Origin: a virus
Length of the DNA stretch: 33,099 nucleotides
UHGV virus genome: UHGV-0076257
Strand: one strand, 5' to 3'
Of the stretch, positions 4,131 through 33,099 are shown piece after piece. Made by a program: the position numbers and the translations under genes. Numbering within the stretch: position 1 is the first letter of the stretch; every line of letters starts with the position of its first letter. The notes below the pieces were generated by a model. It was not told the DNA's origin. It did no database searches and saw nothing but the letters and a program-made list of their open reading frames with translations.

Positions 4131-4430
4131 TCAAATAAGTGGTTTGCTGCCTAATTTTATTTTCTGGCGACCAACACAAGTCACACCCATTTCACTGCGT
4201 GGCTTGCGGTAGTAAATACGGTTCTGTTTATGCTCGACTTCTTCTGCTTTCTTACAGCGAAGGCTTCCGAGTGATGCTGCTTTATCTGCTCTGACGCAAC
4301 CAGAGAGCTTTAGCGCAATTTTTCGCGCCAGTCGCTGCTCTTGCATTGCCTGTTCACGTTGAGCCTGTCTGCGTGCTCTGCGGCGATTTCTGGCGTTATC
4401 GTCAGCCAGATATGTAATGACTACTGTCAT
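4131..4430 (-). CDS. N: Antitermination protein N (lambda-N-like)
   Basis: N-terminal arginine-rich motif (DNARNRRRARRQAQREQ) and C-terminus YYRKPRSEMGVTCVGRQKIKLGSKPLI resembling lambda N (...WYSKPGERGITCSGRQKIKGKSIPLI); first gene downstream of PL/nutL. Confidence 0.85.
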   Translation of the reverse strand: MTVVITYLADDNARNRRRARRQAQREQAMQEQRLARKIALKLSGCVRADKAASLGSLRCKKAEEVEHKQNRIYYRKPRSEMGVTCVGRQKIKLGSKPLI

Positions 4431-4537
4431 GTTGACCTCCGATGATTGACTTTGGCGGTGACGCGCCGGGTGCTTATCTTCCAGTTGCCGTCGTGCAGCT
4501 GCACTTCACGTCACCCCAAAGCCAACTACTCTTTGGT

Positions 4538-4579
4538 TCCCGCATTTCGGCGGGACAATCCCATCAATGTTAAAGAGCC
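4538..4579 (-). promoter_or_regulatory. nutL site (boxA plus boxB hairpin)
   Basis: Minus strand reads GGCTCTTTAACA (boxA-like) then TCCCGCCGAAATGCGGGA (6-bp stem hairpin) between PL and N; the same boxA/boxB pair recurs on the plus strand after cro. Confidence 0.7.
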
Positions 4580-4624
4580 TGCCAATCTGTTCCGTTTGGC
4601 TACCAGCGTCCTGCTGATGGCTTA

Positions 4625-13852: not shown

Positions 13853-14014
13853 TAGCGATAATTTTACTCATCATCCTTCACATCTGGCTCTGTAGACAGG
13901 GTGGTGATCACTTCTGGAGTGAATCCAGATTAAATATCTCATTGCTGATGCTTGATATTGAGCATCTGGCGCGCGGTAAGGGGCTGCGTTGAGATAAGAG
14001 CCAGTCATCACAAA

Positions 14015-25455: not shown

Positions 25456-26832
25456 ATGGCTACTTGGCAAGGATCAAATGGCGGATTGTTGGCTGGTATC
25501 GGCGGCGTCAACTCAAACGCTCCGAGCGTAAATGACATCGGCAATACGCTTCAGCTTATCAGGCAGAACAATGATATTGAGCGTTCAGGCGCTAACAATG
25601 TTGGGCTGACTGCTTTGCAAGGCCTTTCAGGTATTGCAGGGGTGTTTCAGCAGGAAAAGCAGGCTCAGCGGCAGAAAGAATTTCAGCAGGCGTACGCTAA
25701 TGCTTATGCGTCTGGTGATCGCGGTGCTTTGCGTCAGTTGGCTACTCAATATCCAGACCAGATTGAATCCGTTCGTAAAGGCATGGGATTCATTGATGAA
25801 GACCAGCGCAATTCTATCGGCACATTAGCGGCTGGCGCACGCCTTGCGTCATCTTCTCCAGAAGCAATGCAATCATGGCTGCAAAATAACGCCAAGGAAC
25901 TGGCGCGCGTCGGTGTTGATCCTAATAACGTTGCTCAGATGTATCAGCAGAATCCATCAGGATTTGGTGAGTTTGTTGATCACCTTGGAATGGCCGCGCT
26001 TGGTCCGATTGATTACTTCAATGTTCAGGACAAGATGGCTGGTCGTGAAATTGACCGAGGCAGGCTGGCAGAGACAATCCGCAGCAATCAGGCTGGCGAG
26101 GCACTTCAGGCGAGAGGGCAAAACCTTTCCTATCAGTCAGCAATGACTGGACACGGACTTGCAGCAGAAAGACTGGCACTTGATAAGCAGAAATTCGGTT
26201 TTGAAGTACAACAGGCACAAAAGAAGGCCGATGAACTTATTAATGCTGCGCCAAAACTATCCGTGAACATGGAAAAGGCTATAGAAAAATCAGCAGGTGA
26301 TGCGGCAGCTAGTCGTAATGCTGCCGATTCAATGACAACGCTTGCTGACACGCTGGAGAAGGAGAAGCCAACTCCTGGTTTGTTCGGTAACGCTGAAAAT
26401 ATGTTCTCTAAGCTTACGGGGCAAGATAACTACCTCCGAGATATGCGGATTAGATTCAACCAACTAGCCAATGCGCAGGCAACCAAGCTTCTCCCTCCCG
26501 GCCCTGCATCAGATAAGGATATTGAGTTTGCAAGGAAAGGCATTCCAAGCGAAACGGATAATCCAATGGTTATGGCTCGATGGTTAAGGGGTATGGCAAA
26601 AATGGAAAGTAATAACGCGAAATTCAACGAGTTTAGGTCAGAGTGGATGAGTGCAAACGGCAGCCCAGGACAATCTGATCGCAACCGAAACATCATGGGG
26701 ATGGATGTTAAGAAGGGTGAATCATTGAACTCTGCGGCAAAACGTTTTCTTTCCTCAAGTTATGGCGATAGCCAACCTCAACAGCAATTGTCCGATGACG
26801 AATTAATTAGCAAATATCTCGGAGGGCAGTAA
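25456..26832 (+). CDS. Ejection protein (P22 gp20 homologue)
   Basis: 458 aa, second ejection-protein position; low-complexity Ala/Gln-rich. Confidence 0.7.
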
Positions 26833-28742
26833 TGGCCTATAGTCGTGAACAGTTGATGACGGCGTTAAGGAATGCTGATGCTGCCGGCGATACTGAGGGA
26901 GCACGTCGCATTGCTCAGATGCTGTCTTCTGGTGATCAATCCACTCAAAACCAATCGCAGCCTGTAGAACAGCAAGATGGATTTATGTCTGACCTCGGCG
27001 AAGCAGTAAAAGAAACTGGTCGCGGACTGGTGCAGGCTGGTGTAAATGTGGCAAATATACCAGCATCAGTTGCCGATGCTGTAACAAGCGCGGCGGCATG
27101 GGCTGGCGGTAAACTCGGTATTGGCGATGGAACATATCAACCAGCGCCACGAGTAACAACTCAGGGATTAGAGCAGGCGTTTGGACTTCAGCAAGGTGCT
27201 CTGACTCCACAAACGACAGAAGGTAGGGTGTTTGCGGAGGCATTGCCTTACCTGGCTACTCTTGGCGTTGGCGGCGCTTCAACTCAGGCGCCAACACTTG
27301 CTGGTAGGGTTACTCAAGGTGCAACTCGTCTTCTCGCCGAAAATGCAGTCGGATCACTTGCCGCAAACAGTGAGAAAAATGATGCGGGAAAACTGGCAAC
27401 AGATATAGGTATTGGCATGCTAACAGGTGGTGCTGTTAATACTGTTGCAAAAGGGATTGGGCGTGGAATAACAGCCTTCAAAGGCGATATCGCACCAGAA
27501 GTAGCGAAAAAAATTGCCACCTCAGAATCAATGGGCGTGATACCAATGACATCTGATGTTATCCCGCCGAAAAATGCTTTCACTCGTGGTCTTACTCAGG
27601 ATGCTGAGGGGGCTTTGCTCGGGACAGGTTCAAAGCGTGCGGAGCAATATGCAAAAAGAAGTCAGCTAGTTAAAAAACAGCTTGAGAAATATGGTGAATA
27701 TAGCCCATCAGTTGTTGTTGACGATCTGTATGGTTCTCTGAAGTCAAGGAAGGATTCAGCCGGAAGCGTTATTGAAGACATTACAACTAAAATGGGAGAT
27801 ACACCTGTTGACACATCAAAATCCATTAAGGTTATCGACAACGTGCTTACCAGGGCTAACAGGCTTGGGAAAGTGGCAAATAAGGATTTGATTAGCGGGC
27901 TATCCGATTTGCGAGAAGAACTTGCTAAACCAGATGTAGATTTTGGACTATTGAGAGAGTTGCGGTCAGCATTAAGGGAAAGTATTCAGGGAGATGCCAT
28001 GGTTTTTCCTAATAGCGCGAAAGCCGCAACTGATGCTGTGGAGAGGGCAATGGGTTCAGATTTGAGGAATAACGCAGCACGGTATTTGGGGGCTGGAGAG
28101 GCTGCCAGATACGTCAAAGCAAACTCTGACTACTCCAACGTCTTCAATAAGGTTCTCAATAAAAGGATTGCGAACAATCTCAACAAAGCTAAAAAAGAGT
28201 TTACTCCAGAGCTAATAGACAGCGTTGTATTCAGCAGAAAACCATCAGATATTAAGAGGATATGGCCTGCTCTTAGTGAAGATGGAAAGAACGCTATGCG
28301 TGCTGCTTATATTAGCAAGATTGCAGAAAAGGCAGGAGACTCGCCAACAAAATTTCTTACCGAGTTAAATAAGTTGAAGTCGCAATCTGACGGTCAGATC
28401 TATAACACGATATTCAGTGGGAGACACATGAAAGAGCTTGATGCTCTTCATGAAGTTCTACAGCAAACAGCAAGGTCAGACGCCGCAAATGTAGTAACAC
28501 AGACAGGACAATCGCAAGCTAACAGGATTAGAACGATTGGCGCAACTGCGACTCTTGGGGCAACACTGGCGCTTGAAGCAGGTTTCGGTGCAATCATGCG
28601 CTTGTACGAGTCCAAAGCAGCAAGGAATACGCTCTTACGTCTGGCAAACACTAAAGCTGGAACGCCAGCCTATGAAAGAGCGTTAAGTAACGCTGCAAAT
28701 GCCGTCAGGCCGCTGTTTGCTACTGAGGCAACACAGCAGTAA
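26832..28742 (+). CDS. Ejection protein (P22 gp16 homologue)
   Basis: 636 aa, third ejection-protein position, overlapping stop/start with the preceding gene. Confidence 0.72.
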
Positions 28743-28766: not shown

Positions 28767-29156
28767 CTAACATTTTCTTTTTACTTTTCCAACAAAAGCT
28801 TTGGTTGAATCCATATTTCCATAACCGGAAATGGTTTTTGACATTAAAACTGTTCCAGTAGGATGTATTACCCATGAGTCGATAACGCGTTGAGTTTCGC
28901 CATTCGCGCCGATTCCTATGATGGAGTTTTTAGACAATGCTTTGTAAGCCATGCCGCCCGCATCTGTCCCAGAATATGTGATGCTGGCATCTTCACCGCT
29001 TGTCTTAATGATGAATGTTCCACTAAAACCATCTTCTTCCGGATGGAAATTATTTCGTTCTGAATAGCTTATTCCGCGCATATCTCCAACGACCCAGCAC
29101 TCTGCTGTAGCCCCAAAAGATATGAATAAGAACATAGCAGCAAGAAATTGCTTCAC
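28767..29156 (-). CDS. Secreted protein with N-terminal signal peptide (129 aa), probable moron
   Basis: Track ORF 28767..29372 trimmed to the GTG at 29156, which lies 3 nt after AAGGAGG; MKQFLAAMFLFISFGATA-EC... is a Sec-type signal peptide; Gly/Ser/Thr-rich mature part. Confidence 0.5.
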   Translation of the reverse strand: MKQFLAAMFLFISFGATAECWVVGDMRGISYSERNNFHPEEDGFSGTFIIKTSGEDASITYSGTDAGGMAYKALSKNSIIGIGANGETQRVIDSWVIHPTGTVLMSKTISGYGNMDSTKAFVGKVKRKC

Positions 29157-29186
29157 ACCAACCTCCTTAGTTTTGCGCAGGATACC

Positions 29187-29552
29187 ATGAAAAAAGTTAA
29201 CATTGGAAACGTACCAAAGATGCTCGTTCCGCTCTTTGAGAGCGGTACAATTGTGTTTTGTAGAGACTTTCCAGAATGGCAACGCCTGCATCAAAAACTT
29301 GGTGTGGACGTGCAGGACTCGGATGCCAACGGAGCGTCTCATACAATGAGCAGCGAGAATGGTGTTTTGCATGTGATAGGCGTGTTCAATGGCAAACTAT
29401 CTACTATTGCCCATGAGTGCGCTCACATGGCATTCGATATCTGCTCAAGGGTAGGTGTTGATGTTGAACCAGGAAGAGCCAACGAGACTTACTGCTACTT
29501 AATGAGCAGGCTTGTTGAGTTCTGCGAGCGACATATCAAAAAGCCGGAGTGA
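29187..29552 (+). CDS. Small HExxH-motif protein (putative zincin-like), 121 aa
   Basis: Track ORF 29148..29552 trimmed to the ATG at 29187, which follows AGGA; contains TIAHECAHMAFD (HExxH). No family confidently recognised. Confidence 0.45.
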   Translation: MKKVNIGNVPKMLVPLFESGTIVFCRDFPEWQRLHQKLGVDVQDSDANGASHTMSSENGVLHVIGVFNGKLSTIAHECAHMAFDICSRVGVDVEPGRANETYCYLMSRLVEFCERHIKKPE

Positions 29553-29564
29553 CCGGCTTGATTA

Positions 29565-29744
29565 TTACTTTTTGCTGTCTGGAGTTCGCTTATCCAATAC
29601 CCAGCCATGACCTGGCTTTGTTGTTGGCGGAAGCCTTTCGTTGTCCTTGACGGTGGCAAAATTGTCTTTCTTACCGCCGCGTGGGCCAACTTCTTGGTAT
29701 ATTCCGCCGTTTTTTCCTGTGTTTTCACCTGGTTTTTTCGCCAT
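29565..29744 (-). CDS. Hypothetical small basic protein (59 aa)
   Basis: Track ORF 29565..29759 trimmed to the Met at 29744, which follows GAGGT; MAKKPGENTGKNGGIYQEVGPRGGKKDNF..., Gly/Lys/Pro-rich. Confidence 0.4.
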   Translation of the reverse strand: MAKKPGENTGKNGGIYQEVGPRGGKKDNFATVKDNERLPPTTKPGHGWVLDKRTPDSKK

Positions 29745-29833
29745 GATATACCTCAACATACACCCGTTATTGGGCGATTAAATATTGATCTCATTTTATG
29801 AGTAGTCAATATGGTCCAAAAAAGGCAAAAATT

Positions 29834-29856
29834 AACCCACCGTCAGGTGGGTTTTT
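29834..29856. terminator. Bidirectional terminator-like hairpin at the 3' end of the mnt-like gene
   Basis: AACCCACC-GTCA-GGTGGGTT flanked by an A-run on one side and TTTTTTG on the other; overlaps the last codons of the minus-strand RHH gene. Confidence 0.5.
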
Positions 29857-30217
29857 TGTTGTCATCACCAAGATATTTCTGCTTATATTCCTCTGAAAGA
29901 GGAATTGATCTTTCAACCATGCTAATAAGTTTATCTACTTGTTTTTTCTGTTTTTCTATGATTTCTAAAAGTTGAGGTATAAGTTTTTCATGCTCGATTT
30001 TATCATATTTTCTGTTTATCGCATCTAGTTGTTCTTTAAACTGCTGAACGATAGGACCATCCTCCGGCCCAAAATCACGACAAACACGAATCGCCAACTC
30101 AAGCAGAGTGACAATCTCAGCATTCATAGAACGATTATTTTGTTTTGATGACGCTTCAATTATTTTTTTTAATTCAACAGGAAGCCTAATCCGAAGTTGA
30201 GGGTCTTCTCTACTCAT
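29843..30217 (-). CDS. Ribbon-helix-helix repressor, Mnt/Arc family, with C-terminal extension (124 aa)
   Basis: N-terminal LRIRLPVELKKIIEASSKQNNRSMNAEIVTLLE fits the RHH beta-strand plus helix pattern (compare P22 Mnt ...NGRSMNSELL...); divergent from the arc/ant operon. Confidence 0.65.
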   Translation of the reverse strand: MSREDPQLRIRLPVELKKIIEASSKQNNRSMNAEIVTLLELAIRVCRDFGPEDGPIVQQFKEQLDAINRKYDKIEHEKLIPQLLEIIEKQKKQVDKLISMVERSIPLSEEYKQKYLGDDNKKPT

Positions 30218-30323: not shown

Positions 30324-30340
30324 CTATTTAAGGAGTGGAG

Positions 30341-30508
30341 ATGGAAAAAGCAAAAGACATGTATCAACGCAAGGTTCGTTTCCCAGAGGATGTAAGGAAG
30401 GCGATTGAAAGAAATGGAGAAAAAGAGTGTCGACAGTTCAACACGGAACTTATTTATCAATTGAGAAAAGTGTACGGACTGATTGGAGAGAAGAATGCTA
30501 GGACATAA
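30341..30508 (+). CDS. arc: Arc-like RHH repressor (55 aa)
   Basis: Hand translation MEKAKDMYQRKVRFPEDVRKAIERNGEKECRQFNTELIYQLRKVYGLIGEKNART; GGAG ribosome-binding site; first gene of the ant operon. Below the ORF-track cutoff. Confidence 0.55.
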   Translation: MEKAKDMYQRKVRFPEDVRKAIERNGEKECRQFNTELIYQLRKVYGLIGEKNART

Positions 30509-30581
30509 AAATAGTGAAGCCCGGCAGTGCGCGAACACAAACCGGGCCTCTATGTCAGTAACCGTATGCAAGGAAACTAAC

Positions 30582-31208
30582 ATGAATATTGTAGCAAAAT
30601 CAGATTACAACTTCCACGGAGTTGAGTTGGTGCCCACCCGTGATATGCATGGTGTTTGGTTTACATCATCTAATATTGCATCTGCACTTAAATACGCAAA
30701 TAGTCGTGCAGTAACAATGATTTATAACAAGTATAGCGATGAGTTTAGCGCCGGAATGACTCAGGTACTCGAAGTGAGTACCTCAGGAAATTATCGCAAA
30801 AAAGTGCGAGTTTTCTCACTACGCGGTGCCCACCTAATCGCGATGTTTGCTCGCACTCCGGTAGCCAAAGAGTTCCGCCGCTGGGTGCTGGATATTTTGG
30901 ATCGGCAGGCAGAATGCTCACCGATTGCAAAACAGTTTACTGACGAAGAACTGGTTAATCTCTGCTACTTACAATTGTGGATGGAGAAGAGTCAACAAAT
31001 GTGCAAACACATCTACCCAGGAATGAAGCAAATTTGTTCTGAGCTTTCAGGAAGGATTTACGATATCGCATATGAGACTCGCTATATGTCAGAAGAAACC
31101 AAGAAATCACTTCTTCGTGAAATGAAGAATCTTGATACCAACAATTTTGTCGTAAAGAACGCTCAGCCAATGCTGGCAAAACTGCGCGGCGAGGAATGGA
31201 TTCATTGA
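30582..31208 (+). CDS. ant: Antirepressor, Bro-N/AntA-type N-terminal domain
   Basis: Track ORF 30483..31208 trimmed to the ATG at 30582, which follows AGGAAA; the RVFSLRGAHLIAMFARTPVAKEFRRWVLDIL segment fits the Bro-N pattern. Confidence 0.72.
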   Translation: MNIVAKSDYNFHGVELVPTRDMHGVWFTSSNIASALKYANSRAVTMIYNKYSDEFSAGMTQVLEVSTSGNYRKKVRVFSLRGAHLIAMFARTPVAKEFRRWVLDILDRQAECSPIAKQFTDEELVNLCYLQLWMEKSQQMCKHIYPGMKQICSELSGRIYDIAYETRYMSEETKKSLLREMKNLDTNNFVVKNAQPMLAKLRGEEWIH

Positions 31209-31296
31209 TTGGTGCGCCGGACGGCGCAAAAAGAAAACCGCCAGTGTGCTGCTGGCGGCCTATGTCACACCCTTACTACCACATAAGGAATGCCTA

Positions 31297-32025
31297 ATGA
31301 CTTTTAAGAATGTAGCAAACATCGGATCCGTTGTCACGGATAAAACCATTGACAGCCAGCGCCTGCTTGAGATGGTAAATCAGGCTCGTAGACAGTGCGG
31401 TGAGCCGGAGGTTCGTAATAACAAATTCATCGAGAAAATTGAAGATGAATTGGATGGAGAGCACTACACAAAAAGTGTAGTGCAAAAAGCGAACAAAACT
31501 TCGATGGTTATCATTGAGATGTCAATCAAGCAAGCATTGCGAGTTGCCGCTCGCGAGTCAAAAGCCGTTCGCCGCTCACTGGTAGACCAACTTGAAAGTA
31601 TGCAAGAAGCGCACATTAAAAGCGGTAAATCAGCGAGTGGACTTGTTGAGTATCGTCAAGCGCGAACATTGAAAATGACGGTTGAAGCTGTTACCAATCT
31701 GTTCGATCTGATGCCAAATCTTGCGCCTGAGGCAAAGCAGACAGCGGCAGCAAGTATAATCAACCCGCTTGTTGGTTTTAATGCAATACCTCTTCCGGCA
31801 ATAGAAGAGCATTACTACTCAGCAGGGGAGGTTGCAGAGCAGCTTGGAGTAACGGCCAACAAGATTGGTCGCATTGCTAACGCAAACAACCTCAAAACTG
31901 AGCAGTACGGGAAGTTCTTCCTGGATAAATCGGCGCATTCCAGCAAACAGGTAGAGGCGTTCCGTTACAATTCTGAAGGCGTTAAAGCACTACAACACCT
32001 GCTACATGGCTCAAATGTGGCGTAA
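31297..32025 (+). CDS. Hypothetical protein in the ant operon (possible antirepressor C-terminal-type module), 242 aa
   Basis: Track ORF 31246..32025 trimmed to the ATG at 31297, which follows AAGGAA; co-oriented with ant and followed by a terminator; family not confidently recognised. Confidence 0.5.
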   Translation: MTFKNVANIGSVVTDKTIDSQRLLEMVNQARRQCGEPEVRNNKFIEKIEDELDGEHYTKSVVQKANKTSMVIIEMSIKQALRVAARESKAVRRSLVDQLESMQEAHIKSGKSASGLVEYRQARTLKMTVEAVTNLFDLMPNLAPEAKQTAAASIINPLVGFNAIPLPAIEEHYYSAGEVAEQLGVTANKIGRIANANNLKTEQYGKFFLDKSAHSSKQVEAFRYNSEGVKALQHLLHGSNVA

Positions 32026-32043
32026 CATTTTATAATGAAAACT

Positions 32044-32068
32044 AAACCCGCTTAATCGCGGGTTTTTT
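32044..32068. terminator. Bidirectional intrinsic terminator between the ant operon and the second RHH gene
   Basis: AAACCCGC-TTAAT-CGCGGGTTT hairpin followed by TTTTCT; overlaps the stop of the minus-strand gene. Confidence 0.55.
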
Positions 32069-32309
32069 CTTTCCTTAGAATTTCAGCCGCAACTTCTTTT
32101 ACTCGTTCCGAGATTAATGAGGCCAGCCTCTCTTCTTCATCACGATACCCGCTTACAGGTGATGGTTTGGAGAGTGATTCTTCCATCGTAGCCACAATTT
32201 CGGAATTGATAGACCTGTTATTCATTTTTGCACGCTGCTTAATCTTAGCGTGCAACTCGTGTGTAAGCCTCAAGTGGAACTGCGCCTCATCGTATTTGCT
32301 GTACATCAT
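32052..32309 (-). CDS. mnt: Mnt-type RHH repressor (85 aa)
   Basis: Track ORF 32052..32705 trimmed to the internal Met (MMYSKYDEAQFHLRLTHELHAKIKQRAKMNNRSINSEIVATMEESLSKPSPVSGYRDEEERLA...), which closely resembles P22 Mnt (...NGRSMNSELLQIVQDALSKPSPVTGYRNDAERLA...). Confidence 0.72.
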   Translation of the reverse strand: MMYSKYDEAQFHLRLTHELHAKIKQRAKMNNRSINSEIVATMEESLSKPSPVSGYRDEEERLASLISERVKEVAAEILRKEKTRD

Positions 32310-32441
32310 CAATGCCTCACCAAATGGGTGGAATGGCATCGTAAAACCTACTGTACAAATCAACAATCGTACCGTTTCGGTATGTAATAAATGCCAACCG
32401 TAGCCATGCTGCGGCGATTCCTTGTATCTGGAGCAAATTAA

Positions 32442-33099
32442 ATGACAGACATTACAGCCAATGTTGTAGTAAGTATGCCTTCGCAACTCTTCACTATGGC
32501 TCGTTCTTTTAAAGCCGTAGCCAATGGCAAAATTTATATCGGTAAAATTGACACTGACCCTGTAAATCCTGAAAACCAGATTCAGGTTTATGTAGAGAAC
32601 GAAGACGGTTCTCACATTCCTGTTTCGCAACCAATAATCATTAACGCTGCTGGATATCCGGTATATAACGGACAGATTGCCAAATTCGTAACCGTGCAAG
32701 GCCATTCTATGGCTGTTTATGATGCGTATGGTACACAGCAGTTCTATTTTCCTAATGTGCTGAAGTATGATCCTGATCAGTTACGGCAGCAATTAGAAGA
32801 CCCAGATGGAGCGAATAAATACCCAAAACTTCAGATAGCAAGATGGAGAGACAGTTATGATGTAAGAGGTTGGGGGGCTATTGGTGATGGTGTTCATGAT
32901 GATACATCAGCTCTATCAGAATTACTTTCTGTTGCAACAGGTGGTGAAAAGATAGATGGGCGAGGGCTTACTTTTAAAGTATCAACTCTTCCAGATGTCA
33001 GTCGATTTAAAAATGCTCGTTTTTTATTTGAGAGAATACCGGGCCAGCCTCTTTTTTATGCTTCTGAAGATTTTATCCAGGGAGAGTTATTTAAAATTA
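32442..33099 (+). CDS. Tailspike protein, 5' partial (P22 gp9-type head-binding domain fused to a different receptor-binding domain)
   Basis: [43 protein letters not shown]... matches the conserved P22-like tailspike N-terminal domain up to ...NVLKYDPDQ; what follows ([15 protein letters not shown]) looks like a pectate-lyase-type beta-helix start. Runs off the window end. Confidence 0.85.

Follow-up and report, generated by a model that had tools for sequence, protein, structure and literature searches.

Minimal zinc metallopeptidases are exemplified by the archaeal minigluzincins (proabylysin and projannalysin; MEROPS M95), proteins of ~100-110 residues that serve as models of the M48 and M56 families and that consist of the catalytic domain only, with an HExxH motif and a further zinc ligand on the following helix of a minimal scaffold. 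We know of no phage context for them. In phage phi80, a reverse-oriented prophage defence gene and an adjacent late counter-defence gene, encoding TaiEcA (204 amino acids) and AtiEcA (76 amino acids), prevent autoimmunity, AtiEcA being a proposed binder of its cognate Tai, not a protease (PMC11364771). Phages and plasmids also carry zincin-type metallopeptidase domains in giant polyvalent proteins, for which processing roles in the virion or after injection have been proposed (Iyer et al. 2017, PMC5512222). Here, we analyzed hkcC, a plus-strand open reading frame (ORF) at positions 29187-29552 of the virus genome UHGV-0076257, a stretch of 33,099 nucleotides that is called the window below. 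By type, the window belongs with E. coli HK620 and Sf6 among the P22-like (Lederbergvirus) phages or prophages, and in P22 hkcC and its neighbour orf59a are described as "ant moron" genes of unknown function (PMC2629481, PMC4837284). The ORF was already known and named; what we add with confidence is the enzymatic classification of its product as a gluzincin-type metallopeptidase. Furthermore, we delineate a large HkcC family that is covered by no searched model, show that hkcC interlocks with orf59a in a mobile cassette that does not depend on immI, and describe the anti-defence neighbourhood of a sister clade.

HkcC was 100% identical to the HkcC region of both P22 and HK620 by tblastn, and a match to phrog_1365 (E 1.4e-39) spanned the whole protein. 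The window has a single copy of the gene by tblastn, which ruled out a second one. In P22/HK620-type phages the gene is named hkcC and annotated as "unknown", and several P22 records annotate no hkcC coding sequence, just a promoter and a terminator at that place. The stretch of HkcC that bears the HExxH motif, residues 73-84, is TIAHECAHMAFD, and the pattern STxAHECAH...ANET was unchanged in close homologues (43-98% identity). A profile search of 1.84 billion representatives (E<=1e-3) retrieved 551 cluster representatives at 50% identity, mostly of 110-140 amino acids. As 84 relatives with 24-74% identity were aligned, the mean column identity was 14%, and H76, E77, H80 and E100 were the sole invariant columns. 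Among members of at least 100 amino acids, HExxH was kept in 256 of 261 and the HExxH-x18-NE spacing was the same in 193; the five members without the motif include three truncated or chimeric entries. In thermolysin (H146/E166), the second His and the Glu are likewise 20 residues apart, as are H80 and E100 in HkcC. Three database "homologues" of HkcC (P0027, P0028 and P0030) are chimeras or frameshift products: one joins a Phage_rep_O-type N terminus (PF04492) to the C-terminal half of HkcC, another carries a P22_AR_C domain, and the third has frameshifts at both ends. These are probably recombination or assembly artefacts and were left out of the alignments.

The fold of HkcC was then predicted with AlphaFold2. 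With 19 sequences, the predicted local distance difference test score (pLDDT) was 83 and two of five models were confident, and with 84 sequences it was 93.9 at a predicted template modelling score (pTM) of 0.86, the five models agreeing at 93.6-93.9. The predicted elements are strands 11-13 and 21-25, helix 28-37, strands 49-56 and 59-66, which form a hairpin, and helices 71-88 and 100-116. HExxH lies on predicted helix 71-88 (pLDDT ~98), and E100 opens predicted helix 100-116. The zincin core has been defined as a small sheet, an N-terminal helix, the HExxH helix and a Glu helix, and the predicted order of elements in HkcC fits this definition (PMC5512222). A search of a viral predicted-structure library gave 17 matches at E<=1e-3, nearly all of them small phage proteins. 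The search returned many phage proteins of ~110-150 amino acids, with query-normalised TM-scores of up to 0.78 and almost always the label "uncharacterized"; in the wider list, the names SprT-like, PolyVal metallopeptidase and metalloprotease each appear for a small number of entries at most. Against all Protein Data Bank sequences, the HkcC-family profile found only myroilysin (E 0.05), over the HExxH helix.

These results support, with good confidence and on the combined basis of alignment and predicted structure, the assignment of HkcC as a bare gluzincin-type catalytic core: the HExxH is conserved on a predicted helix, and a Glu ligand candidate is found on the next one, as in the zincin/gluzincin superfamily. 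Zinc binding and peptidase catalysis are what we infer from this site. The earlier note, made from the letters of the DNA, had described a 121-codon plus-strand ORF with HExxH and had read the motif as a zincin-type site; the ORF is present, with an ATG start and an AGGA ribosome-binding site, and the site reading was borne out. Of the three findings that, according to the note, would overturn its reading, two were addressed, namely a motif that is not conserved in homologues and an HExxH outside a zincin-like fold; the alignment spoke against the one and the fold prediction against the other.

We next compared the genomic contexts of the family, and every context inspected was phage or prophage. 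Genes of the hkcC clade with 43-63% identity were seen in dissimilar phages. In siphovirus prophages of Klebsiella, Rosenbergiella, Xenorhabdus and Proteus and in one from a JGI metagenome, they lie between tail-tube or chaperone genes and the tape-measure gene; in a Pasteurellaceae prophage, the gene comes after the O/P replication genes of the early operon; and on metagenomic contigs, it adjoins a PF18894 metallopeptidase gene. In every such context the gene runs in the sense direction of the operon around it, and a convergent orf59a homologue (61-81% identity) follows at 5-30 bp. Close hkcC copies (at least ~70% identity) occur in 53 phage-database records and close orf59a copies (at least ~60%) in 53, and a locus search of the viral collection with a close alignment yielded only P22-like hkcC copies of 99-100% identity. 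A copy of hkcC without orf59a was seen in a Moraxella copy, in a frameshifted Arsenophonus copy and in one recombinant P22-like lineage (11 of 80 IMG/VR loci, one junction), where a gene for a 74-amino-acid membrane protein stands instead. Genes like orf59a also exist without hkcC (L114-L119). In this clade, hkcC and orf59a are an interlocked ~620-bp cassette that moves jointly between unrelated temperate phages. Within it, orf59a has a promoter and a terminator of its own and thus forms a self-contained, oppositely oriented unit. Physical interlock alone could explain much of this co-inheritance, because the orf59a terminator lies inside hkcC. In an accessory region of Salmonella bongori-type prophages (L114-L116, 3001-3180), an orf59a homologue with 68% identity and no hkcC adjoins GmrSD_N and HEPN genes or a HigB/helix-turn-helix (HTH) toxin-antitoxin pair, which hints that Orf59a-type proteins sit in defence-rich islands.

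A sister clade with 35-44% identity to HkcC includes Orf-129 of ST64T and phage L, gp70 of epsilon34, gp49 of mEp021 and many enterobacterial prophage genes. Its genes occupy the slot that follows the lysis cassette and precedes the small terminase gene, with no orf59a. One or two genes away, a Tad2-like gene (PF11195) was found in two independent loci (L011 4665-4940 and L107 3360-3692) and an Acb2/Tad1-like gene (PF24729) in one (L013 4619-4900); sister-clade genes also adjoin Rha, DUF2560 or PF18894 genes. The PhageMetallopep genes (PF18894) that adjoin members of the HkcC family lie at L106 4376-5014 and L100 1330-1968. Virulent phages of the N4-like and phiKMV-like kinds have more remote members, which are surrounded by small genes or genes of DNA metabolism. 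From these contexts, a function common to the whole family cannot depend on orf59a, lysogeny or immI.

From this gene context we tentatively propose, at somewhat short of an even chance, that HkcC may be a conflict or counter-defence effector, namely a minimal metallopeptidase of the lytic phase. In the predicted site, H76, H80 and E100 would hold one zinc and E77 would act as general base in the gluzincin style, so that HkcC would work as a small soluble site-specific metallopeptidase. It would be made in lytic growth by read-through of the phage operon around it, and not in the lysogen, because the gene is always on the lytic-sense strand and a promoter scan found no plus-strand promoter consensus directly 5' of hkcC. 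The operon concerned would here be the P22-type late operon, with hkcC between injection gene 16 and the tailspike gene; in P22, the late operon reads through the hkcC region to gene 9. The orf59a gene and the upstream moron would be expressed in the prophage, and the specific protein that HkcC would cleave as the lytic cycle proceeds would come from the host or from a resident prophage.

Several points weigh against this proposal. An anti-defence role, the alternative named in the earlier note, is plausible, and gene neighbourhood is its whole basis: the association is one of guilt by proximity in known accessory-gene hotspots, and most neighbours of the family are unannotated. The late expression of hkcC is read from strand and promoter scans. 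In addition, the strict linkage to orf59a in the hkcC clade could mean that the substrate is phage-encoded, not host-encoded. The literature has hkcC solely as "unknown", and our literature searches found no functional study of hkcC, orf59a, YjzC or phage zinc-protease counter-defence.

The linkage to orf59a leads to an alternative that we consider possible, although on the whole unlikely: Orf59a would be an effector expressed in the lysogen for superinfection exclusion or defence, and HkcC a lytic-only antagonist that removes it, probably by cleavage, and thereby spares the phage's own lytic cycle, in a "non-contiguous operon" like that of TaiEcA/AtiEcA. Exactly this layout has experimental precedent in phi80 Tai/Ati (PMC11364771). 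Both loci have a reverse gene with its own promoter inside a lytic operon, beside a small sense gene, and the hkcC sister clade is in the same lysis-to-terminase slot as Tai/Ati; the orf59a promoter and terminator are conserved, orf59a is directed against the lytic operon, and no plus-strand promoter was found for hkcC. Convergent pairs of an hkcC-clade gene (43-100% identity) and orf59a persist across the window, P22, HK620, SE1, prophages of Morganella, Klebsiella, Rosenbergiella, Xenorhabdus, Proteus and Pasteurellaceae, and two metagenomic contexts, with gaps of 5-30 bp and with synonymous sites saturated. The equal record counts given above, the orf59a homologue beside GmrSD and HEPN genes, and the fact that orf59a homologues exist without hkcC while hkcC-clade genes almost never lack orf59a, fit it as well. 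However, orf59a is missing from the larger part of the wider family, the Orf-129 clade and the members in virulent phages included, the linkage may be purely physical, and the IMG/VR loci of the recombinant lineage keep hkcC intact beside the membrane-protein gene. The exclusion mapped to this region of P22 is accounted for by SieA alone (PMC10883804), and no defence phenotype is known for orf59a. Homology to phi80 orf63/orf64 (Tai/Ati) was ruled out, since neither blastp nor the family hidden Markov model gave a significant match. Carried to its full form, in which hkcC/orf59a would be a mobile lysogeny/lysis switch cassette whose constitutive YjzC-like effector is erased by a dedicated, read-through-only minimal zinc protease, the idea is rather doubtful.

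Scans of HkcC against Pfam, NCBIfam and PADLOC gave no meaningful match, only spurious lantibiotic ones (E 0.14 and 0.025). That HkcC is a SprT/Spartan-like DNA-associated protease, which would clear proteins bound or cross-linked to phage DNA, is improbable. The SprT-like model (PF10263) matched weakly round the HExxH helix in 14 of the 84 relatives (best E 1e-4, none shown at the family cutoff), both public annotation and the viral structure library label some homologues "SprT-like family protein", and in one phiKMV-like phage the copy has the DNA ligase gene on one side and the RNA polymerase gene on the other. However, HkcC itself, for which the earlier note had suggested this comparison, had no PF10263 match at E<=1, and hhalign of the HkcC-family profile against E. 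coli SprT (YggI) gave a probability of 4.7% with the active site unaligned. Its 121 residues leave no space for the zinc-ribbon or DNA-binding extension of the SprT-like family, and its third ligand candidate is the invariant Glu, not the His that serves as third zinc ligand in Spartan/Wss1-type enzymes.

Likewise, with no Pfam match HkcC does not belong to PhageMetallopep (PF18894), and hhalign against the PF18894 protein of L106 gave a probability of 1.4%; by these comparisons PF18894 genes are neighbours of HkcC-family genes, not detectable homologues. No sequence relationship to the minigluzincins was detected, with which HkcC shares the catalytic domain alone, the HExxH with a ligand on the following helix, and the minimal scaffold. 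As judged from the profiles, the HkcC family represents a branch of the zincin superfamily for which no model exists among those searched, and it matches none of the families tested; HkcC has no Pfam model match and no defined clade within the superfamily.

The polyvalent-protein metallopeptidase domains resemble the HkcC family in being phage-borne, and the family, too, is in accessory, conflict-type regions; HkcC differs in that it stands alone with 121 amino acids and is not a domain of a giant multidomain protein. In a further explanation, scarcely likely, HkcC would be a virion-associated or assembly protease that processes an ejection or tape-measure protein, or would be packaged and injected like those domains. 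Such roles were proposed for phage zincin domains (PMC5512222). In P22-like phages, genes 7, 20 and 16 for the injection proteins precede hkcC, the siphovirus-prophage copies come just before the tape-measure gene, and the viral fold search included a "PolyVal Metallopeptidase" match (E 6e-3). Nevertheless, the sister clade precedes the terminase gene, the Pasteurellaceae copy is in an early replication operon, and the virulent-phage copies are among small or DNA-metabolism genes. Sf6 apparently lacks hkcC despite injection genes like those of the window, as tblastn of the phage collection listed no Shigella phage record, and to our knowledge the proteins identified in the P22 virion do not include HkcC.

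The earlier note had considered an ImmA/IrrE-type protease or regulator beside the immI repressor/antirepressor circuitry. In this explanation, HkcC would be an anti-repressor protease that cleaves Mnt, Arc or C2 and so steers antirepressor synthesis or induction, and we regard it as very unlikely. ImmA-family HExxH metalloproteases are known to cleave repressors, and ImmA/IrrE (Peptidase_M78, PF06114, COG2856) are, like HkcC, small HExxH metalloproteases of mobile elements. An Arc/Mnt-family gene lies two genes off in the window, in P22, in a Morganella prophage and in a Proteus siphovirus prophage (L104), where an Ant gene follows it. However, HkcC had no PF06114 match at E<=1, and only one of the 84 relatives had one, at E 0.099. 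ImmA/IrrE proteins act on a protein encoded next door, and as a rule an HTH repressor gene adjoins their genes in the same orientation; hkcC has no such gene beside it, its neighbour here being an opposite-strand ribbon-helix-helix gene with orf59a in between. Moreover, HK620 keeps hkcC and orf59a with only mnt and ant remnants, SE1 has both with mnt present and no arc/ant annotated, and no repressor is adjacent to the cassette in the Klebsiella, Rosenbergiella and JGI siphovirus loci or in the Pasteurellaceae early operon. The constant neighbour of hkcC is orf59a, while a Mnt-like gene is found in some contexts only and is absent from most siphovirus loci. Since the cassette persists where immI is absent or degraded, hkcC is not part of the immI circuit, the link is incidental, and the idea of an ImmA-like regulator of immI was rejected.

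Lastly, we compared eight diverged copies of the cassette for signs of selection. The proportion of nonsynonymous differences (pN) was 0.25-0.43 for hkcC and 0.04-0.34 for orf59a, and that of synonymous differences (pS) was 0.69-1.0, which is saturated. As synonymous sites are saturated while pN is low, hkcC and orf59a are real coding genes, and the upstream secreted-protein gene also belongs, on its sequence, among the real genes under purifying selection. The suspicion that one of the tightly packed ORFs might be spurious did not hold, with phrog matches for all three ORFs, pN below pS for hkcC and far below it for orf59a, and the conservation and fold prediction of HkcC. We give next to no credence to the explanation that ORF 29187-29552 is non-functional and its DNA kept for overlapping promoter and terminator signals alone: such signals do overlap both ends of hkcC, and some P22 records annotate nothing else, but the protein is conserved down to 24% identity across hundreds of clusters with its tetrad H76/E77/H80/E100 invariant, its fold prediction is confident, and its pN stays low against saturated synonymous sites.

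The features of the locus are collected in the table. The 12 bp that the earlier note had given between the stops of hkcC and the convergent small gene are exact (29553-29564), whereas its 30 bp to the divergent gene were approximately right, the gap being 27 bp from the GTG at 29159, which GGAGG precedes, or 51 bp from the ATG at 29135, the RefSeq choice in a near-identical prophage of E. coli PK13. The note had also called the packing in opposite orientations unusual. Alignment to the P22-pbi annotation, which puts the sieA promoter inside the first 30 bp of hkcC, and the position of the orf59a terminator indicate ordinary moron architecture instead: because the promoter of the leftward gene and the terminator of orf59a lie inside the ends of hkcC, the sense gene carries the regulatory ends of its antisense neighbours, and the packing is tight. 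The leftward moron promoter would lie in the 5' end of hkcC by position, as the P-sieA equivalent; the consensus promoter scan missed it.

Features of the hkcC locus in the window, with positions, strand and description
Feature	Position	Strand	Description
Gene 16	26832-28742	+	Injection protein
Divergent secreted-protein moron	28767-29159	-	phrog_2651, E 9e-61; slot of sieA in P22 and hkcB in HK620
hkcC ribosome-binding site	29179-29182	+	AGGA (Shine-Dalgarno), 4 nt 5' of the ATG; read from sequence
hkcC coding sequence	29187-29552	+	ATG start, 121 codons and TGA; predicted minimal gluzincin-type metallopeptidase
P22 P-sieA promoter equivalent	29187-29217	-	By alignment to the P22-pbi annotation only (record 13861-13891)
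HECAH codons	29412-29426	+	H76-E77-C78-A79-H80 (HExxH), on predicted helix 71-88
N99-E100 codons	29481-29486	+	E100 (29484-29486), putative third zinc ligand, 20 residues past H80
orf59a terminator hairpin	29541-29559	-	AAGCCGG-loop-CCGGCTT, GC-rich, across the hkcC stop; z = -2.7
orf59a (hkcD in HK620)	29565-29744	-	Convergent; 59-amino-acid YjzC-like protein; phrog_3202, E 1.3e-31
orf59a promoter	29781-29809	-	Sigma-70-like, TTGACT-N17-AATATT
Bidirectional terminator hairpin	29834-29853	.	In overlap with the Mnt-like ORF at the 3' end of the latter; stands between that ORF and the orf59a promoter, close to the promoter
Mnt-like gene	29843-30217	-	Arc-family ribbon-helix-helix repressor, start of immI; PF03869, E 3e-7
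Arc gene	30335-30508	+	Followed by antirepressor-type genes

The intrinsic terminator hairpin at the hkcC stop was found in all eight cassette copies (the window and seven diverged ones), with differing stem sequences; on the minus strand of the window the T-rich tract TTTGATAT comes after it, and HK620 annotates it as the bidirectional terminator tORF59A. At 29538-29559, the last codons of HkcC, AAA AAG CCG GAG TGA (KKPE*), are at the same time the A-run and the 5' stem of this terminator. As the same codons form the terminator, the recurrent C-terminal KKP(E/A) of HkcC probably reflects this dual coding and terminator constraint and not protein function. At the other end of orf59a, TTGACT-N17-AATATT lies 35-40 nt 5' of the start, at constant distance, in six of the eight diverged copies. 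In the upstream region of the window (29745-29809, minus strand) and in L095, L097, L098, L103 and L104, a short element that is conserved as TTTAATCGCCCAATAACGGG or variants of it comes after TTGAC(T/C)-N17-AATATT and could form a 4-bp hairpin. This candidate 5' untranslated region (5'-UTR) hairpin has four pairs, of which one is changed on both sides, and its covariation term of -0.44 kcal/mol is weak; the element could be an operator or a 5'-UTR element. The hairpin at 29834-29853, AACCCACC-loop-GGTGGGTT, has T-runs on both sides, is followed on the plus strand by TTTTTGTT, and corresponds to the annotated tMNT of HK620. Because this strong terminator separates them, orf59a is probably not simply co-transcribed with mnt in this phage; in the P22 annotation, unlike here, the mnt terminator sits after orf59a. 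Orf59a matched PF14168 at E 0.0017, below the cutoff.

The product of the upstream moron has a signal-peptide-like N terminus (MKQFLAAMFLFISFGATA), and its gene is not part of the hkcC/orf59a cassette proper. At both minus-strand slots that flank hkcC (in L015, 3782-~3990 and 4380-4604), genes for different small secreted or membrane proteins are exchanged. The upstream slot has sieA in P22, hkcB in HK620, the phrog_2651 gene here and, in some IMG/VR prophages, genes for other small membrane proteins; the downstream slot has orf59a here and the gene for the 74-amino-acid membrane protein in those prophages. Between these variable morons, hkcC stays 99-100% identical as a conserved linker. Further along, the Mnt-like ORF has 124 codons, compared with the 83 amino acids of P22 Mnt, and the immI region at 30335-32705 is unlike that of P22, with a 57-amino-acid Arc, a BRO-N/P22_AR_C antirepressor-type protein (30483-31208) and a 259-amino-acid protein that matches no Pfam model (31246-32025). 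On the minus strand, ORF 32052-32705 contains a second ribbon-helix-helix gene of the Arc family (Arc domain at residues 140-185), at a place for which RefSeq gives an 84-amino-acid protein in the related PK13 prophage.

For the biology of P22-like phages, these results concern two genes, hkcC and orf59a, that have been among the last unexplained ones of P22 since its genome was sequenced; hkcC has been known as a gene of unknown function for 25 years. They also correct a tempting misreading, as closeness to immI does not make HkcC an ImmA-like regulator. With a confident catalytic signature and a defined family of at least 551 clusters for which Pfam has no model, HkcC turns into an enzyme that can be put to the test in phages whose genetics are excellent. 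The anti-defence genes seen here beside the HkcC family encode nucleotide-signal sponges only; if HkcC acts on a host defence protein or on Orf59a, proteolysis would join the counter-defence repertoire. Should the proposed action prove true, it would represent a protease-based mechanism of self-immunity or counter-defence, and the HkcC family may be general "effector-erasing" proteases of phages.

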